Below are positions 2,259 through 37,790 of a DNA stretch of 48,699 nucleotides, one piece after another; position 1 is the first letter of the stretch, and every line of letters starts with the position of its first letter. The position numbers and the translations under genes were made by a program. Under the pieces are notes generated by a model, which worked only from the letters and a program-made list of their open reading frames with translations, ran no database searches and was not told the origin of the DNA. This stretch comes from Thermoplasmata archaeon (GTDB taxonomy: Archaea; Thermoplasmatota; Penumbrarchaeia; JAEHCK01; GCA-020356005). Where the stretch lies: assembly GCA_020356005.1 (NCBI GenBank), contig CP070629.1, positions 1,981,490 to 2,030,188 on the forward strand. Direction: 5' to 3'.

Positions 2259-2777
2259 ATGGATGATCAAACACTCACTCTTAAAAATAGAAGGGATTTA
2301 TATCAATATATATGTAAAAATCCCGGAATGCATTTAAGAGCCATAGAGAGAGCTATGAAAATTTCACTGGGTGATATAAGATATCATCTTGAGTATCTGG
2401 AAAAAGAGGGTTTGATTACATCTCAAAAAGATGAATATAAAAGAACTTACTTCTCGGCAGAGGATATATATCATGGCGATAGAGAAACTCTTGCCCTGCT
2501 GAGACAGGATTCACCGAGAAAGATCCTGTTATTTTTAATTAATCATCCTTCCTCACATTTTGAGGATATCCAGCAGGAATTGAAAAAATCGAAATCCACT
2601 ATCTCTTTTCATTTAAATAAATTAATAAAATGTAATATAATCGAGGTTAAAACAGAAGATAACAAAAATGAATATTCTATTATTGATATAGAACAGATCA
2701 TTAGACTTCTTATTACGTATCGGTCAAGCTTCATAGATGATACCGTTGATCGGGTTGTTGAGATGTGGTTAAGATGA
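2259..2777 (+). CDS. ArsR-like transcriptional regulator with two winged-helix modules
   Basis: Two HTH-like segments (GMHLRAIERAMKISLGDIRYHLEYLEKEGLI; SHFEDIQQELKKSKSTISFHLNKLIKCNII). ATG at 2259 is preceded by AGAGGA; the ORF track starts at a TTG at 2256. Confidence 0.7.
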   Translation: MDDQTLTLKNRRDLYQYICKNPGMHLRAIERAMKISLGDIRYHLEYLEKEGLITSQKDEYKRTYFSAEDIYHGDRETLALLRQDSPRKILLFLINHPSSHFEDIQQELKKSKSTISFHLNKLIKCNIIEVKTEDNKNEYSIIDIEQIIRLLITYRSSFIDDTVDRVVEMWLR

Positions 2778-2789
2778 TACGTCGCTTTC

Positions 2790-3175
2790 AGAGTGGTGAG
2801 CACGGTCCCTTCGGGACCTTGAATGGTGAGTGGTGAGTGAAATCTGATTCAATATCGATTACATAAATGGTGAGTACGACTGCTTCGCAGTCTTGTATGG
2901 AAAAGGCATTAAAAGCCTAGGGATTTGGGATTGGGACGGTTGCTACGCAACCTTTGGGGTTTAGGGTTGATTATAATCGATTGAAATTAACCCTAATCCC
3001 TAAAGCGAGCGACCATAGGGAGTACGCGTCCTAATCCCCAATCCCTGATTCTCACCATTCAAGTGAGAGCCCGAAGGGCTCGAGCGTCCTCACCATTCAC
3101 CACTCTTTAAGCAGTATCTCAGCTTACCTCACCATTTAAAAAGCATTACCTCAGCGCTCCTCAGCATTCACTAAT
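2790..3175. repeat. about 320-nt imperfect palindrome, family A (GGTGAG / GGGATT words), plus extra CTCACC/CTCAGC words
   Basis: agagtggtga (2790-2799) pairs with tcaccactct (3097-3106). Nested arms are gggatttgggattgggacg and cgtcctaatccccaatccc. The apex is gggttgattataatcgatt (2964-2982). Confidence 0.8.
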
Positions 3176-3391
3176 TATTTTCTCAACTTAATATAAAATA
3201 AACCAAAAAAAATCTAAATTGGATTATTTTTAAATACATGTATTTTCATTTCCATTGTTAATAAAAATTCAAAGAAAACGGTTTCGTGCTGAATTGGGAT
3301 GTTCATTAGAGGGAGACTGTAAAGTACATTGATTTCCCCTTTTATCTATCCCCATAATTCTCCTGTTCTCAGGGAGAGGAGGTGATCTGAA

Positions 3392-4819
3392 ATGAGAAAA
3401 TCCATTGGTACTTTAATGGTTCTTGCATTTGTTATTATTGCTTTTGGTTTTGCCCAGCCCGTCTCAGCCCAAATTACAGTGGAATTAATTGATATAGGAA
3501 CCCTGGGTTATAAACACAGCATTGCAAGAGATATGAATAATCTGGGCCATATTGCCGGCATGAGCCCTGTTGCAGAGCATGTTAACCATGTTTTCCTATG
3601 GACCGAAGAGACAGGAATGATGGACCTTGGTACATTGGGAGGCAACTTTGGCGAGGTTTTTGGAATCAATGACCTGGACCAGATAGTGGGATATACCCGC
3701 ATTAGTACAGATCCTTCTATAACTGACTTCCACGCGTTCTTATGGTCCGACGGCGTCATGACCGATCTCGGCACCCTGGGTGGAACGTTATCCATGGCAT
3801 ATGATATAAACAACCTGGGCCAGGTGGTAGGTTACAGTAAAACAGCTGAAGGATATAACCACGCGTTTCTCTATGAGAACGGAGAGATGAAAGACCTGGG
3901 AACCCTCGGTGGAACCAGCAGCTTTGCCAGACGTATTAATGAGGTGGGCCAGATCATCGGCCAGTCAAGAACTGCCTCTGGTGAAGAGCATGCGGTCATG
4001 TGGGAAAATGGGAAGCTAATCGATCTTGGAACTCTTGGACCCGGATGGTATGCACGACCGATAGCGATTAATGAACTCGGCCAGGTCGTAGGTTACTGCG
4101 TTGACTCTTCAAACCAGATTATACAGCATGCTACGTTGTGGGATTATCCCAGGGCAATCGATCTTGGAACCCTGGGAGGTATGTTTAGTAGTGCATTCGA
4201 CATCAATAACCTCGGTCAAATCGTTGGTGGCAGCCATACTGAAGACTACAAGATTCATCCAGTTCTATGGGAAGGAAAAGATATGATAGACCTGGGGGTA
4301 ATTTCGGGGCCAAGCGGAACTGCCCGTTTCATAAACGATAAGGGAGTCATCGCCGGAGATTATTTGACTGATACAGGCGAAGGCCGCAATTTCATATGGA
4401 CCGAACAGTACGGCAACATCGAGCTTCCGAATATTGGTGGTACCAGAAGTTGGGTATATGATTTGAATGAAAATAATCAAATTCTGGGATATGCACAAAC
4501 AGCCACGTTGGAATCTCATGCTATACAATGGACTTTAACCATACCCCAACCGGAAGACCCGGTAAGTTCAATCAGAGAAGAAATTGATGAGATCATCAGT
4601 ACCGGTGATCTTGGTGCAAACGAGGCAAATGCTTTCAACGGACCGCTAACAGGAGCTGAACATCAAATAGAGAAGGATAATACAGCAGCAGCAATAAATG
4701 GATTCAATGCTTTCATAAACCAGGTAGAGGCATTCAACAAAGCCGGTAAAATCTCAAACGAGGATGCGGCTACATTGATCGGTATGGCAAATGAGGCTAT
4801 TGCTGCACTCGGTGGTTAA
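3392..4819 (+). CDS. secreted HAF-family extracellular repeat protein with helical C-terminal domain
   Basis: Signal peptide (LMVLAFVIIAFGFAQPVSAQ). About 8 repeats of DLGTLGG..(x)..INNLGQVVGyS....HAFLW. C-terminal helical segment (EHQIEKDNTAAAINGFNAFINQVEAF..ISNEDAATLI) looks FIMAH-like. Perfect GGAGGTGA SD upstream. Confidence 0.75.
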   Translation: MRKSIGTLMVLAFVIIAFGFAQPVSAQITVELIDIGTLGYKHSIARDMNNLGHIAGMSPVAEHVNHVFLWTEETGMMDLGTLGGNFGEVFGINDLDQIVGYTRISTDPSITDFHAFLWSDGVMTDLGTLGGTLSMAYDINNLGQVVGYSKTAEGYNHAFLYENGEMKDLGTLGGTSSFARRINEVGQIIGQSRTASGEEHAVMWENGKLIDLGTLGPGWYARPIAINELGQVVGYCVDSSNQIIQHATLWDYPRAIDLGTLGGMFSSAFDINNLGQIVGGSHTEDYKIHPVLWEGKDMIDLGVISGPSGTARFINDKGVIAGDYLTDTGEGRNFIWTEQYGNIELPNIGGTRSWVYDLNENNQILGYAQTATLESHAIQWTLTIPQPEDPVSSIREEIDEIISTGDLGANEANAFNGPLTGAEHQIEKDNTAAAINGFNAFINQVEAFNKAGKISNEDAATLIGMANEAIAALGG

Positions 4820-4832
4820 AATCTATAGTATT

Positions 4833-4865
4833 GGGAGAGGTTTTGCCTCTCCTTAATTTTTTTTC
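4833..4865 (+). terminator. hairpin plus T-tract terminator candidate
   Basis: gggagagg-ttttg-cctctcc followed by ttaatttttttt, 14 nt after the stop codon of the HAF gene. Confidence 0.5.
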
Positions 4866-4869
4866 ATTT

Positions 4870-5160
4870 CATTATCGCTTAAAGAATGGTGAGGACGGCT
4901 GCTTCGCAGCCTTGAGCATTGAGCTATGAGCACGACCGCTTCGCGATCTTGTGCAAAAAAAGCTGAGAAAGCGATATATTCAGGCACTAGAGAATAGAGA
5001 TGAGGCGCTAGGGTGATTACAATCGATTAAAATCCCCAGGCCCGAGACCCGATGCCCCAGCCCCGAATATGTTTATTGCTCAAGCGAGCGAAGCTCGCGT
5101 GCTCAACGCTCAAGCGAATGAACGAAGTGAGTGAGCGTGCTCAATGCTTTCAAAGCATTA
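4870..5160. repeat. intergenic palindromic element (GAGCA/TGCTC words, family A module at its 5' end)
   Basis: Left arm is aatggtgaggacggctgcttcgcagccttgagcattgagctatgagcacg. Right arm is cgtgctcaacgctcaagcg..cgtgctcaatgctt. Apex is gggtgattacaatcgatt (5011-5028). Confidence 0.7.
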
Positions 5161-5167
5161 ACCAATT

Positions 5168-5662
5168 TTATAGATTATACTTTAATCCAACGCTTACAAC
5201 TAAAATAATCAATCCTGCAATCAGTACGCCAGCAAAGATAGCATAAAATGAGCGCCTGATGTCAAGATCGAACAGGTATGCAATGAGCGAGCCCGTCCAT
5301 GCACCGGTTACGGGCAGCGGGATGCCCACGAAAATCATTAGCCCTATAACTTCGTACTTACGAATGCTTTTACCCGCGCGGCGGCGCGTGCGTGCGAATA
5401 CCTTGTCCATTACCCTCGACCAGTACGGGTAGCGCCGCAGCCAGTTCTCCACGCGCTTGAAGAACACCAAAATGAACGGCACAGGTATCATGTTCGCCAC
5501 CACGCACAATGTAAACGCAAAGGCTATGTTCATATCGTAAACGAAGATTGCAATGGGCAGTGCACCCCTGAGCTCAACGAAGGGCAGCATTGATATGAAT
5601 GCGATAACGAACCAGTCTGGAAATGCTGCTAGAAATTCGGTAATCCTGTCGGCAACGGACAA
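5168..5662 (-). CDS. small multidrug-export-like membrane protein (COG2426 / Sm_multidrug_ex type)
   Basis: 164 aa, 4-5 TM, with the characteristic N-terminal motif LPFVELRGALPIAI. Confidence 0.65.
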   Translation of the reverse strand: MSVADRITEFLAAFPDWFVIAFISMLPFVELRGALPIAIFVYDMNIAFAFTLCVVANMIPVPFILVFFKRVENWLRRYPYWSRVMDKVFARTRRRAGKSIRKYEVIGLMIFVGIPLPVTGAWTGSLIAYLFDLDIRRSFYAIFAGVLIAGLIILVVSVGLKYNL

Positions 5663-5771
5663 AACTCACACCTGGAATTGATTTATATTGATATTTGTTG
5701 ATATCATATAGATTAAATATAATTTTCGAATGCTATCTTGACGATTAACAACAAAACTTTTTTGATTTTTG

Positions 5772-6402
5772 TTGCTTAGTAATACTACCAATACTACAAA
5801 ATCCAAATACTACAAAATTTACCTTTTAATGAATAGTTTCGGTGATCTCCTATTGTTAATTTTAATAAATATAGAATCATTATCATTTCAGGTTTGGGTG
5901 ATATAATGAAAACTGAACCAAAAAAGAAAAAGATTTACAATATTAGAGATAGAGTATTTCAATTCAGTCAAAGGATCTTGGAAATATCGGAATTACTACC
6001 TAATTCTAAAGCATGCGATGTTCTTAGAACTCAATTATTGAAATCAGGTACAGCGATAGGATCTAATTTAGAAGAAATCGATGGGACAATAACGAAACGA
6101 GATTTTTTAAACAAAGTTGTCATTGCCAGAAAGGAAGCAAAAGAGACACTCTACTGGCTACGATTAATCAAAGGAAAATATTTTGACGAAGAAATCATCA
6201 AGGATGATTTGGATGAACTTAATGAGATAACTCTTATACTGAGCGCAATAATAAACAAAACTAGAAAGAAAAATCCATCTTTGTAGTATTTGTCATTTGG
6301 ATTTCCACCGAAGGGGCTGGGGTGGGGCTTTGTAGTATTTGTAGTATTTGGCTTTCCTTTGTAGTATTTGTAGTATTTGAAGTATTTGATTTTACTAAGC
6401 AA
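5772..6402. mobile_element. inverted-repeat-bounded cassette carrying a four-helix-bundle ORF (IVS/MITE-like, no transposase)
   Basis: Terminal 11-mers ttgcttagtaa (5772-5782) and ttactaagcaa (6392-6402) are exact reverse complements. Inside them are arms of tactacaaa / tttgtagta word repeats. The ORF stop codon TAG lies inside the first tttgtagtatttg word. Confidence 0.45.
5906..6286 (+). CDS. four-helix-bundle protein (23S rRNA intervening-sequence protein / Avd-like family)
   Basis: Matches the family signature as I recall it: F.F...I......LP......L..QLLKSGTAIGSNLEE.......DF..K..IARKEAKETLYWLRL. Start placed at ATG 5906; the ORF track starts at TTG 5894. Confidence 0.85.
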   Translation: MKTEPKKKKIYNIRDRVFQFSQRILEISELLPNSKACDVLRTQLLKSGTAIGSNLEEIDGTITKRDFLNKVVIARKEAKETLYWLRLIKGKYFDEEIIKDDLDELNEITLILSAIINKTRKKNPSL

Positions 6403-6430
6403 TTTCAAATCCAAATAAATCGGCTTTTAA

Positions 6431-7759
6431 TCAATAATTTATCGCTTCAGTTTTCATATATTCTCTTAACAGCGATGTGGCGTATGTGCCTTTATTCAGC
6501 TGGAATTTGAACCTTGCAGAATCCTCTGTGATCTCCAGCTCGAAATTCGAAACAGGTGCCGCAAGTTCGCGCCGGATGCCCGAAGACGACGCGGGCAGCA
6601 GCTCGGGGATGACGAAATCGTCCGGCACCAATTTTTCTCGGTTAATGAACTCGTGCTCGATTTCGCCCTGCACCCCCGAGGCGAACTCCGTTTCCGAGCC
6701 GAAAACCAACCCACTTATAAACGCGCGCTGCGCGCCCACCAGCTTGGTGAGCTTCTTGCGGTTGTCAACCGTAACCTCGTACCATTCGGTATGGATGGGC
6801 AGCCCGTCCTTATCCACGGGCAGCACAAGATCCCCGGGCTGGGGCTCCGTCAACGATATGCCCCGCTCGATGCGCGCACAGAGGATGAGGTTGAATATAT
6901 ACGATTGGTATGAGTGCACGAACATCGCCAGCAGGTTCTGCGGAAACCTTCGCAGTGCCCCGATGTAGTCCTCGGGGTTGTCGATGAGGTATCTTATCAT
7001 CGCCCGTTCGAACTCCAGCTCCTTGGGGTATTCCTGCAGCGCACTCTCCAGGTCCCTCGTTTTTACCAGGTTGGTGCGTACCTCGAAGCCTATCGTATCC
7101 CCGGGGAGCGGCCTGCCGATATACTCCCATACCGCCTCCTCGAACTTGCGCTGCACAATATATTTCCCCACATTATGCGTTATGGGCCGTACGGCACCGA
7201 ACCGCTGCACACCGAAAAAATTGGGGAAGCCGTTGAGCTCCTCCAGCTGGGCTTGCGTTTCCTTAATGGCCTCCTCAAGTGCCTTGCCCTCGAGGTCGGG
7301 ATTGGATAAAAGTATATCGAACTTGTTGCCGTAAAGCCGGCCCAGCTTCAGGCGGTGGTTCGAGGTATAAACATCACTTATGGTAACATCGGGGATTCTT
7401 AAGTCCTTGAGATCTTCAGGCGAGGCCTCGAAGGACATCAGCTGGGTCGTTATTCCCCTCTTATCCTTTGTACCTGCAAAATGTACCTTGTGGCTCCTGA
7501 TATTAAGATCCCGGGCCAGCCTTTTCACCAGCCTGTTGGTCTCCCAGTTAAAGGCTTTCACTTTGGCCACGGAGAACCTCCCCGTTTTGGGCGGCTTTAC
7601 AGGGGCGGGGTACATGGAGACCTCCTCCACCACAAAATCCTCTGTTCGTTTGCGGAGCTTGCCACCTACTCCTGTGGATGTTGTATAAAATAATTCCAAA
7701 CCCATGGAACATTCGGCACTACCTGGTCTAAGCCTGTTTTGACCCGGAGCCGAGCTCAT
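6431..7759 (-). CDS. truD: tRNA pseudouridine synthase D (archaeal TruD/Pus7 type)
   Basis: N-terminal GVGGKLRKRTEDFVVEE and catalytic motif FAGTKDKRGITTQ. 442 aa. The true start may be the internal MGLELFYT (about 7705). Confidence 0.9.
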   Translation of the reverse strand: MSSAPGQNRLRPGSAECSMGLELFYTTSTGVGGKLRKRTEDFVVEEVSMYPAPVKPPKTGRFSVAKVKAFNWETNRLVKRLARDLNIRSHKVHFAGTKDKRGITTQLMSFEASPEDLKDLRIPDVTISDVYTSNHRLKLGRLYGNKFDILLSNPDLEGKALEEAIKETQAQLEELNGFPNFFGVQRFGAVRPITHNVGKYIVQRKFEEAVWEYIGRPLPGDTIGFEVRTNLVKTRDLESALQEYPKELEFERAMIRYLIDNPEDYIGALRRFPQNLLAMFVHSYQSYIFNLILCARIERGISLTEPQPGDLVLPVDKDGLPIHTEWYEVTVDNRKKLTKLVGAQRAFISGLVFGSETEFASGVQGEIEHEFINREKLVPDDFVIPELLPASSSGIRRELAAPVSNFELEITEDSARFKFQLNKGTYATSLLREYMKTEAINY

Positions 7760-8053
7760 TCACACACTAACCTTATTGACCAACTTCTCGAAGTCTTCAT
7801 ATTCCTTGAGTAATGATTTCAGTGCTTTCTTTAAAGCATCCTCGGGTTTGCCTTTGCGCACTTTTAAAAATATTCTAGGATGTTCAAGTTCGGGATGGCC
7901 CATTATATAAGTGGCCAATTCCACTTTTTTATCTTCCAAAAGTTTCTCGCGCAGTGGATGCAGGAGCGTTTCGCCCTCGCCCAGGACTTCAAGCTCCAGG
8001 GTGTCATCCGTATGTTCGATCTTTCGCAGTTCCATACTAATCTCAACCCTCAA
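7760..8053 (-). CDS. rpoL: DNA-directed RNA polymerase subunit L (Rpo11)
   Basis: 97 aa with LELEVLGEGETLLHPLREKLLEDKKVELATYIMGHPELEHPRIFLKV, the typical Rpo11/RpoL core. Its stop codon abuts the truD ATG (TGAATG). Confidence 0.85.
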   Translation of the reverse strand: MRVEISMELRKIEHTDDTLELEVLGEGETLLHPLREKLLEDKKVELATYIMGHPELEHPRIFLKVRKGKPEDALKKALKSLLKEYEDFEKLVNKVSV

Positions 8054-8103
8054 CGCTGGTGCTCTTTTTATATTTTTCCATAAATATGATTATATATCGA
8101 TTC

Positions 8104-8540
8104 CATAAATGGTGAGTACGGCAGCTAAATCTGCCTAGAATGGTGAGTGGTGAGTGAAATCTGATTAAATAATGATAATATAAATGGTGAGTACGGCAGC
8201 TAAAGCTGCCTGGAATGGAAAAGGCATTAAAAGCCTGGGGATTAGGGATTGGGACGGTTGCTACGCAACCTTTGGGGATTCGGGTTGATTTTAATCAATT
8301 GAAATTAACCCCAATCCCTAAAGCGAACGACCGCAGGGAGTGAGCGTCCGAATCCCCAATCCCTATTATAATCTGCCTTCACCATTCAAGTGAGGGAGCG
8401 TAGCGATCGAACGTATTTTGCCTTCACCATTCTACCAGCGATTTATATGCTTCTCTTACCATTCAAGCGAAGGAGCGAAGCTCGCGTGCTCATCATTCAA
8501 GCGAGAGCCCGGAGGGCGGAAGCGTGCTCTAATATCATTA
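8104..8540. repeat. family A palindromic element, second full copy with internal direct duplication
   Basis: 8181-8364 aligns with 2876-3058. In a 128-nt sub-block I hand-counted about 90% identity. The ataaatggtgagtacg+hairpin module is duplicated at 8106-8144 and 8181-8219. Confidence 0.8.
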
Positions 8541-8570
8541 CTCATTAATTAATCAGCTTCTTATCATATC

Positions 8571-8583
8571 AAATTATATATAG
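8571..8583 (+). promoter_or_regulatory. TATA-box candidate for a leaderless DUF63 transcript
   Basis: aaattatatatag is centred about 29 nt upstream of ATG 8606, with no SD in between. Confidence 0.4.
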
Positions 8584-8605
8584 ATTAGTTCGATTTACAT
8601 TTCCA

Positions 8606-37374: not shown

Positions 37375-37790
37375 ATCGGAGCGTTTTGATTTTATATTGA
37401 TTTTTATCACTCACAGAGCGTTAAGCTTAGTCATTGATTATAAGCACTCACGGAGCACTTCAATGGTATAACGATTGAAAGCGTTCTCGGTAAGGATGCA
37501 TATATACAAGAAGATGAGAAATGCAGCATGCGGCAGGCAGCAAGTTTAATTAAAAATAGGGATTAGGGATTTGGACGGTTGCTACGCAACCTTTGGGGAT
37601 TAGGGTGATTTTACAAGGACTCATGACCCAGGACCCAGGACCCAGGGTCTTGCTCTTACATTCTTCCACTTTTACACAATTCTACTCTTTAACTTGTCCT
37701 GAGAGCGCTTCAAATCGAAATCCAAGCAGAGCGCTCTGAATGGCTCTTATAATTAATATATAGAAAAACGCTCCAATAGTCCATCGATAG
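37375..37790. repeat. composite spacer joining family B, a family A half-copy and family D (AGGACCC heptamers)
   Basis: agcgttttgattttatattgat sits just after the stop codon. gggattagggatttggacggttgctacgcaacctttggggattagggtgatttta is a family A left arm only. It is followed by tgacccaggacccaggacccagggtc, then family B words again. Confidence 0.7.

Follow-up and report, generated by a model that had tools for sequence, protein, structure and literature searches.

The stretch of DNA analysed here, 48,699 nt long and referred to throughout as the window, is one complete contig of an archaeal metagenome-assembled genome (MAG), and two of its spacers carry copies of a palindromic repeat that we call Family A. 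The assembly consists of 358 contigs joined with 100-N spacers (3.58 Mb in total, 42.6% GC, completeness 78%). Genes for an RNA polymerase subunit L domain, for TruD and for an HVO_0163-type helix-turn-helix (HTH) domain are archaeal. The nearest named homologues of TruD, at about 50% identity, belong to Thermoplasmata and Methanomassiliicoccales MAGs, and among named groups it is Thermoplasmata to which the host, an uncultured archaeon, is most closely related. The first Family A core (2919..3046, plus strand) lies within composite element A1 (2790..3126, plus strand), which is delimited by inverted repeats and by its fold and stands between an HTH-regulator gene and a HAF-repeat gene. The second (8237..8364, plus strand) lies within composite element A2 (8104..8540, plus strand, delimited by its fold), in the spacer from which rpoL and a DUF63 gene diverge. 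Each core is enclosed in an outer shell of GGTGAG words, to which A2 adds several side-hairpin modules on its right. Two further features of the window bear on these copies: a related element B (4870..5160, plus strand), and a sibling cassette (5772..6402, plus strand) in which a PF05635 four-helix-bundle gene sits between inverted TACTACAAA / TTTGTAGTA word arrays.

The two cores align without gaps over 128 nt (2919-3046 against 8237-8364) with 13 mismatches, or 89.8% identity, exactly the count given in an earlier note on this DNA; lengthened to 151 nt, the pair has 14 differences, and the likeness reaches leftward across the GGTGAG arms. The wider intervals proposed at that time, 2876-3058 and 8181-8364, were right in content but not in registration, being offset by about 12 nt, and the partner of 8181-8364 is approximately 2864-3046. 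The earlier note took Family A for a pair and advised collecting all copies in the genome. There are in fact about 20 full cores, scoring at least 94 bits with our covariance model of the core (R2) and 80-92% identical, with fragments besides; the module model (R1) gives 107 matches. The closest pair of copies in the genome is about 92% identical by BLAST.

Word arms, side hairpins and the four-way junction

Each element is an imperfect palindrome in which tandem 7-nt words on the 5' arm (GGTGAGT and GGGATTN) face their complements on the 3' arm (CTCACC and NAATCCC). Six bases of every word pair, and the seventh, a free position in the core, is usually mismatched. In A1 this architecture appears as three inverted repeats (2770-2799/3097-3126, 2821-2837/3089-3105 and 2919-2938/3027-3046). 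Small side hairpins of two kinds stand among the words. The L module, on the 5' arm, reads TGAG-N-ACG, followed by a 5-6 bp stem with a 3-nt loop and then by CTTGA, the flanks being invariant. Five such modules had been listed earlier, and all five are present with the stems as they were read then; their hairpins begin at 2805, 2879, 4898, 8121 and 8196. The corresponding GGTGAG-N-ACG starts fall at 2795, 2869, 4888, 8111 and 8186, so that of the module starts first proposed only 2886 has to be corrected, to 2866-2869. A1 holds two of them, GGTGAG-C-ACG gtccc-ttc-gggac CTTG (2793..2824, plus strand; R1 43.0 bits) and GGTGAG-T-ACG actgc-ttc-gcagt CTTG (2867..2898, plus strand; R1 42.1 bits). 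Those of A2 are an L-like module whose 3' flank has decayed to CTAG (GGTGAG-T-ACG gcag-ctaaat-ctgc; 8109..8141, plus strand; R1 22.5 bits) and GGTGAG-T-ACG gcagc-taaa-gctgc CTGG (8184..8216, plus strand; R1 25.2 bits).

The R module, on the 3' arm, opens with TCAAG and closes with CGT-N-CTCA. Its insert begins with a C-G pair and a tandem G·A/A·G, continues through two Watson-Crick pairs to a second tandem G·A or further Watson-Crick pairs, and ends in two closing pairs and a GNA-type loop of 3 nt, chiefly GAA, GTA or GCA. A pure zipper form is cgaacgaacGAAgtgagtgag, exemplified in the window by the pure G·A zipper cgaatgaacGAAgtgagtgag at 5111-5138. The R module of A1, CAAG tga gagccc-gaa-gggctc gag CGT with CTCACC words beside it, was located by regular expression (3060..3087, plus strand); it coincides with an R1 match on the minus strand (3057-3096) and forms a side hairpin in the minimum-energy fold. 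The same kind of search places three R modules (CAAG ... CGT) in A2, at 8387-8414, 8464-8487 and 8498-8525 (span 8387..8525, plus strand), and R1 scores 28.5 bits at 8461-8496 of the minus strand. Throughout the window, R1 finds L modules on the plus strand to the left of element centres and R modules on the minus strand to the right of them.

L and R hairpins occupy matching places in the two arms, between the invariant flanks. When the arms pair, ACG meets CGT and CTTG meets CAAG, and a perfect four-way junction results from every L/R pair. This junction is seen in the minimum-energy fold of A1; as RNA, the region 2780-3170 reaches -170.5 kcal/mol (z = -11.1 against shuffled sequence) in a multibranched structure, and A2 folds into a long multibranched hairpin of -174.2 kcal/mol (z = -8.1 against shuffled sequence). 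The hairpin to which the earlier note drew attention is one arm of this junction, a context that the note had missed.

The Family A core is itself one L/R-type four-way junction. The consensus of 16 core copies comprises an outer stem, a side hairpin H1 (GACG gttgc-tac-gcaac CTTTG), a central hairpin with the apex TTGATTATAATCAATTG, and a side hairpin H3 (AAGCGA ... GAGCGT), the apex measuring 12-20 nt among copies. H1 follows the grammar of the L module (word, N-ACG, hairpin, CTT(T)G, word) and H3 that of the R module (CAAG, CGA, hairpin, GAG, CGT). Copy 1, which scores 155 bits with R2 in the sense direction and 92 bits in the antisense, places its outer stem of GGGATTN words at 2919-2937 / 3031-3046 by this consensus, the L-type H1 at 2938-2954, the central hairpin with apex TTGATTATAATCGATTG at 2955-3006 and the G·A-zipper-type H3 at 3007-3030. 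In copy 2 (R2 158 bits) H1, the central hairpin and H3 occupy 8256-8272, 8273-8324 and 8325-8348.

Element B carries L modules at 4886-4917 and 4923-4954 and R modules at 5081-5100 and 5111-5138 (R1 44.2, 36.3 and 44.5 bits; fold z = -3.9). Its inner arms (4975-5070) are non-complementary, with AGGCGCTAGAG words on the left and CCCCAGCCCCGA on the right, and they join at a Family A-like apex, GGGTGATTACAATCGATTAAAATCCCC. Element B looks like a chimera formed at the apex.

Covariation and strand polarity

The module hairpins change their letters and keep their pairing. The strict module pattern occurs three times in the window against 0.03 expected, and across the genome the combination of ACG, a perfect 5-bp hairpin and CTTG is found 62 times; seven controls in which the flanks were scrambled gave 0-2. 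This perfect set includes 15 stem types, with loops that are chiefly TTC, AAA or TTT. When all 13-nt inserts in the context TGA(G/A)-N-ACG ... CTTG are taken, 51 of 67 are perfect 5-bp hairpins, a property of 0.17% of random 13-mers. Among 58 distinct modules, 92.8% of cells are paired, compared with 66.2% after shuffling, and 5/5 variable pairs have changed on both sides (99 cells, a count raised by copying among modules). None of 500 shuffles matches the observed values and slid controls leave 26-44% of cells paired; 14 additional pair types go beyond what copying alone explains. Closely related cores contribute merely three compensatory pairs, such as a G-C to C-G change in the H1 of three copies.

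The same behaviour is seen in homologues. Seven elements from two other families of the order, in an alignment that was fitted to R2 and therefore favours structure, are 91.7% paired, and both sides have changed in 20 of 41 pairs; 0/500 shuffles reach this value and slid controls give 2-7. The earlier observation that the five stems vary and remain self-complementary is borne out genome-wide (five of five variable pairs compensatory, no shuffle of 500 equalling it). Selection on a folded nucleic acid, which that observation had been taken to indicate, is supported by pairing that is kept while letters change, both across this genome and in homologues of the order.

A rival explanation of these palindromes dispenses with selection on the fold and has template switching, or fold-back copying between arms, make and repair them. 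The arms mirror even their loops, TTC against GAA and TAC against GTA, as fold-back copying predicts; the stem cgagc is found both with an AAA and with a TTT loop; and imperfect L hairpins carry no wobble bias. Such copying would, however, erase non-Watson-Crick pairs, and tandem G·A pairs are fixed in dozens of modules, also in a related genome of the same order (G002). Moreover, the L and R hairpins of one element differ in stem, and the flanks are kept over family-level divergence while words are replaced. The fixed non-Watson-Crick pairs make template switching in DNA alone an unlikely source of the palindromes, and we give this explanation hardly any credence.

The fold has a clear polarity. 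Core stems contain 31 G·U against 4 A·C pairs, the free word positions about 25 against 10, and the sense strand, which reads the G-rich words first, folds better than its complement in every one of 16 cores, with a mean advantage of 9.2 kcal/mol. R2 scores of about 150 bits in sense and about 85 bits in antisense agree with this. By nearest-neighbour energies, 46 distinct R inserts are better in the sense direction in 28 cases, equal in 17 and worse in one, and L inserts are strand-symmetric. Both the G·U excess with its better sense-strand fold and the tandem G·A pairs, which stand at fixed places and pair on one strand only, favour a single-stranded fold over a DNA-templated palindrome.

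These results also bear on the proposal that the word arrays act in double-stranded DNA, as iterons, G-quadruplex tracts or cruciforms that shape chromatin, replication or transcription, the hairpins being incidental. The tandem words with their 7-nt period would suit such a role, as would the phased G3-4 runs in the left arms of Family A, given that GGGNATC-like heptamers of Xanthomonas and Nostoc form G-quadruplexes in vitro (PMC4692102). Against it, sibling word families of like architecture (TACTACAAA, TGAGCA and TAAGCAC) have no G runs, covariation preserves pairing and not sequence, and both G·A zippers and a G·U excess are meaningless in duplex DNA. We consider a duplex role highly improbable.

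A strand-specific fold fits single-stranded DNA too. An element comparable to repetitive extragenic palindromic (REP)/REPIN sequences or to IS200/IS605 would be copied during replication by an HUH (Y1) transposase that recognises its hairpins and fixed flanks on one DNA strand. Very stable DNA mini-hairpins, of which d(GCGAAGC) is reportedly one in the work of Hirao et al., are likewise characterised by C-G-closed GNA triloops and tandem G·A pairs. DNA tolerates G·T and G·A pairs, the R hairpins have GNA-type triloops closed by C-G, fixed short flanks stand beside variable hairpins much as GTAG does in REPs, and the genome holds one Y1 transposase gene with words and a hairpin upstream. That gene nonetheless resembles an ordinary IS200/IS605-type transposase with four partial 3'-end copies, and it has neither L nor R modules on its flanks. 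The homologues most similar to it (46-47% identity) reside in module-free genomes, those of module-bearing relatives being just 26-31% identical, and the elements track PF05635 genes instead. As it is neither co-distributed with the modules nor flanked by them, we rejected the Y1 transposase as mobiliser, and a single-stranded DNA element of this kind seems to us improbable. The Y1 gene lies outside the window, at genome position C1:308783-309262, its partial 3'-end copies at 1886395, 1770076, 1169089 and 1909540, and the upstream words are TTAGTGCTT, with a hairpin flanked by AAGCGA ... TCGCTT.

Distribution and turnover in the archaeal order

Family A belongs to a large system of intergenic word-hairpin repeats. 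A crude map assigns 84% of the genome to open reading frames (ORFs), and these contain just 5 of the 67 L modules and 3 of the 53 R modules. A strict screen finds 102 giant hairpins genome-wide. Tandem Repeats Finder (TRF) reports many word families of period 7-9, among them 1384 period-7 arrays that include AATCCCT/AAATCCC (45 arrays) and AATGGTG (18 arrays). Repeat copies fill many spacers of the genome, and some of the MAG contig joins, at least, run through them. Elements are nested at the apex in the shells of A1 and A2, and Family A copies are broken by another repeat at genome positions 790299 and 1845242. Outside the window, at C1:790299, 1845242 and 1739787, Family A outer stems harbour a repeat some 140 nt long that includes the hairpin gaacagttcaaa ... 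ttgaactgttc. The window itself holds a truncated core, left arm and H1 followed by other words, at 37549..37613 (plus strand; 88% identity by BLAST), with a partial R1 match at 37577-37593.

Module flanks are conserved far beyond this genome. In a comparison of 61 relatives, the genome studied here (G000) is the sole member of its family and genus, G001-G003 share its order, and G005 shares its class and lies outside the three genomes of the same order. R1 finds 107 matches in G000, 21 in G003, 7 in G002 and 1 in G001, and none in G005 or in the other 32 genomes of the class; the search of related genomes advised in the earlier note thus returned modules in G001, G002 and G003. R2, applied to the first five of these genomes, gives 69 matches in G000, 35 in G003, 3 in G001, 2 in G002 and 0 in G005. 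The word families of the relatives are different (GAGGTTTGA in G003, AGTTGTGAG in G002), and the flanks GAG-T-ACG ... CTTGAGG and CAAG ... CGTACTC reappear there together with G·A-zipper variants. Flanks are accordingly kept across three families of the order while words are replaced. On the small contigs of closer relatives (L204-L206), which hold few spacers, R1 has no matches. In G003 (L164, L161), L and R modules with GAGGTGTGA words stand directly behind tRNA-like 3' ends (GGTTCGAATCC ...), an arrangement that is tandemly repeated with a unit of about 190 nt.

Two sites can be followed among relatives. Downstream of truD (window 5772-6402, compared with L202:1-135, L205:5227-5516 and L204:3206-3655), every relative examined has a word hairpin, with different words each time. 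In G002 the hairpin is of CCAAATCC type; a relative whose TruD is 68% identical carries a AAAACGAGG hairpin of 115 nt followed by the same Sm_multidrug_ex gene, and one whose TruD is 74% identical carries a composite of AAGGATT and AATACTACA words with an R module. The AATACTACA words are common to this last relative and to the PF05635 cassette of the window. Among the genomes examined, only our own has a PF05635 gene within the hairpin at this site. Upstream of rpoL, G003 (L203:1800-2310) carries an unrelated giant inverted array of 25-27-nt units, in which about four ttgattgacagatgcc... copies lie opposite about 12 tcagcatcaacccagccaggtatctgt copies. From these two comparisons it follows that hairpins persist at sites while their content is swapped.

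Such apparent long-term retention raises the question of a service to the host. Family A could be a domesticated structured RNA, a cis-acting transcript element or a multicopy small-RNA family, kept because its junction hairpins process, stabilise or insulate spacer transcripts, as enterobacterial REP and bacterial interspersed mosaic elements (BIME) do, and owing nothing to an ability to spread. The conservation of module flanks across three families, the age of the copies (closest pair about 92%), the strand-specific fold and the presence of a hairpin downstream of truD in all relatives examined, which suggests retention at the site, are in keeping with this. The orientation of the copies is not, since 24 Family A cores and fragments divide into 7, 6, 6 and 5 across the four orientation classes relative to neighbouring genes, with no preference, and the types of spacer that they occupy (divergent, convergent and co-directional alike) agree with background. 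Elements that are nested, chimeric, truncated or broken by other repeats, and orthologous sites that carry different word families, speak against a host function as well, as does the spacer upstream of rpoL, which is a mere 63-74 nt in two relatives, though the neighbouring gene differs there. We regard domestication as rather unlikely.

The lineage appears to have the element to itself, as public genome and metagenome scans made here found it absent elsewhere. When 185,579 species genomes were scanned for GGTGAG-N-ACG-NNNNCTTCGNNNN-CTTG, the pattern turned up singly, 67 times in all and mainly in bacterial MAGs, and never in multiple copies. A first metagenome pattern scan gave 0 matches; a second gave 24 hits in four unrelated contexts, 20 of them one recurring stretch, none with a self-complementary insert. 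The covariance search against Rfam that the earlier note had recommended was run and matched no family: the whole window has 0 matches at gathering score, and the region 2700-8600, searched at E up to 10, yields only three hits, which at 15-19 bits, where gathering scores are 60-95, are due to chance. Two known RNA motifs were tried and rejected, a hammerhead-like reading of the ...GA(stem)GA... core, which has no CUGANGA box and no Rfam match, and a C/D-box reading of GGTGAG...CTGA, which amounts to just a 15.7-bit chance match to sR35.

PF05635 cassettes and known systems

The tie of Family A to PF05635 gene cassettes was another feature that the earlier note had missed. In the window cassette, the PF05635 gene (5906-6286, plus strand; Pfam E = 2.8e-15) encodes a protein whose nearest solved structure is PDB 2RLD (E = 5.6e-17), and the enclosing inverted repeats are 90-95% complementary. 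Its right word arm is broken at 6313-6328 by a G-rich insert, accgaaggggctggggtggggc. All six PF05635 genes of the genome (6/6) are flanked by inverted arrays of words of their own, and the one at genome position 1679112 has Family A arms on its flanks, including H1 and H3. Related genomes hold 3 (G001), 17 (G002), 22 (G003) and 2 (G005) such genes, and the other 32 genomes of the class none. Most of those examined in G002, G003 and G005 are packaged in inverted word arrays in the same manner. Of four more distant homologues, three lie between inverted word arrays, one of these coming from a Pacebacteria bacterium of the candidate phyla radiation (CPR) and one standing between purH and purD; the fourth (L180) has words downstream only. 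PF05635 (23S_rRNA_IVP) is the S23p family of ORF-bearing 23S rRNA intervening sequences (IVSs), known from helix 45 of Coxiella burnetii and from Leptospira, in which terminal inverted repeats form a stem, RNase III excises the insert and the whole is regarded as a 'selfish element' (PMC4990558).

We are therefore inclined to see in Family A an IVS-like palindromic element of about 130 nt without an ORF, a gene-less relative of PF05635 cassettes, and consider this reasonably probable, if far from certain. Under this proposal Family A would be a non-autonomous derivative of an IVS-like gene cassette, a derivation suggested by the fact that the same shells enclose PF05635 genes, one of them with Family A arms. 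Its active form would be the single strand that reads the G-rich words first, and this strand would most likely be RNA, derived from read-through or from a promoter of its own; it is the analogy with intervening sequences that makes RNA the likelier form over single-stranded DNA. A factor conserved in the order may then recognise the junction and its flanks, the candidates for this role being the protein of the PF05635 family and a nuclease specific for double strands, of which the RNase III of sister genomes is an example. Family A would thereby persist and multiply in spacers, as a putatively mobile element that might be selfish or domesticated.

A bolder proposal, which we think unlikely on the whole, is that the junction is the cis-recognition structure of an undescribed class of word-armed stem-loop cassettes with an Avd-like PF05635 cargo, whose gene-less copies are served in trans. 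Their upkeep or spread could then be due to the PF05635 protein, or to a nuclease of double-stranded RNA acquired alongside it.

Several observations weigh against the IVS-like explanation. Firstly, most PF05635 cassettes have no L or R modules, which a cassette thus need not contain, and the correlation of modules with PF05635 is confined to one clade, amounting to one evolutionary event. Secondly, mobility at present is at most putative, because the genome contains no near-identical Family A copies (best about 92%), no direct repeat that could be a target-site duplication borders any of 24 copies, and no filled site can be set against an empty one; in short contigs from sediment DNA runs, depth is 30-400 at repeats against about 4, and no clean empty site was found. 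Thirdly, single-stranded DNA fits the fold as well as RNA does, owing to the GNA triloops and tandem G·A pairs that mark DNA mini-hairpins. The imperfect L hairpins, with 6 G·T against 7 A·C, have no G·T excess, and the public sequencing runs that contain the region are of sediment DNA only, with no RNA run among them. Finally, no RNase III (PF14622) was found in our own MAG, an absence that is inconclusive because the MAG is only 78% complete. The RNase III domain is rare in archaea. In a profile search of the class genomes it was present in G003 (G003:C91:23192-23575, L147), G002 (G002:C402, L149, two tandem copies) and G005 (G005:C79, L148), with weaker matches in G010 and G014, and was not found in G001.

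The fold, which Rfam does not catalogue, is kept across three families of an uncultured archaeal order, and its invariant flanks, two unlike hairpins, tandem G·A pairs and clear polarity make it testable. Gene-less intergenic repeats are here linked to PF05635, a family without known function whose habitat in the literature has so far been the excised 23S rRNA intervening sequence only. If a protein or nuclease does recognise the junction, prokaryotic heptamer repeats would gain both a partner and an assay, and if the bolder proposal is right, one system would embrace the repeats of this archaeon, the orphan heptamer repeats and the intervening sequences of 23S rRNA.

Among known systems, Gut-1 RNA (RF01706) is likewise an orphan structured-RNA candidate, found in metagenomes only (Weinberg et al. 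2010, PMC2864571), from which Family A differs in flanks, words and host, a sediment archaeon, and to which it has no match at E = 10. REP, BIME and REPIN elements resemble Family A more closely, being intergenic palindromes of many copies in which an invariant motif (here the flanks ACG / CTTG) stands beside a hairpin of variable stem, inverted pairs form one long hairpin or two small ones, and one strand carries the logic. The elements described here are, however, far larger, built of words and equipped with G·A-zipper hairpins, and a cognate REP-associated tyrosine transposase (RAYT) was not found in this genome, where the lone Y1 gene does not track the modules.

The word arms themselves recall the heptamer repeats of bacteria. 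Short tandemly repeated repetitive (STRR) sequences of heterocystous cyanobacteria were reportedly described by Mazel et al. in 1990. GGGAATC of Xanthomonas and GGGGA(C/T)T of Nostoc are G-rich tandem 7-nt words in non-coding excess, and Xanthomonas genomes each have 70-75 convergent inverted pairs able to form stem-loops (PMC4692102). Family A shares the tandem 7-nt words. The Xanthomonas and Nostoc repeats were described as G-quadruplex formers without side hairpins, and no link to PF05635 was reported for them (PMC4692102), whereas many of the word families here have no G runs.

In its economy Family A is comparable to a miniature inverted-repeat transposable element (MITE), since it is short, ORF-less and present in many copies, with inverted-repeat ends in common with a larger, gene-carrying relative. 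That relative, however, encodes a four-helix-bundle PF05635 protein and not a transposase, the flanks of the 24 copies show no target-site duplication, and the copies are old, at no more than 92% identity. The comparison with intervening sequences has its own differences. Family A belongs to an archaeon, has a 128-nt core without an ORF, and lies between protein genes and not in a 23S rRNA helix (9, 25 or 45); the 23S rRNA gene of this genome is present as fragments on separate contigs (C1:3557375-3557988, 268341-268828 and 287168-287321), one of which has 251 model positions within 306 nt. Its arms consist of 7-nt words in series, mismatched at each seventh base, and they bear conserved side-hairpin modules that form four-way junctions. 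It is nevertheless with the intervening sequences that Family A has in common terminal inverted repeats forming a long stem and, through its full-size relatives alone (window 5772-6402; genome position 1679112), a PF05635 gene in the loop.

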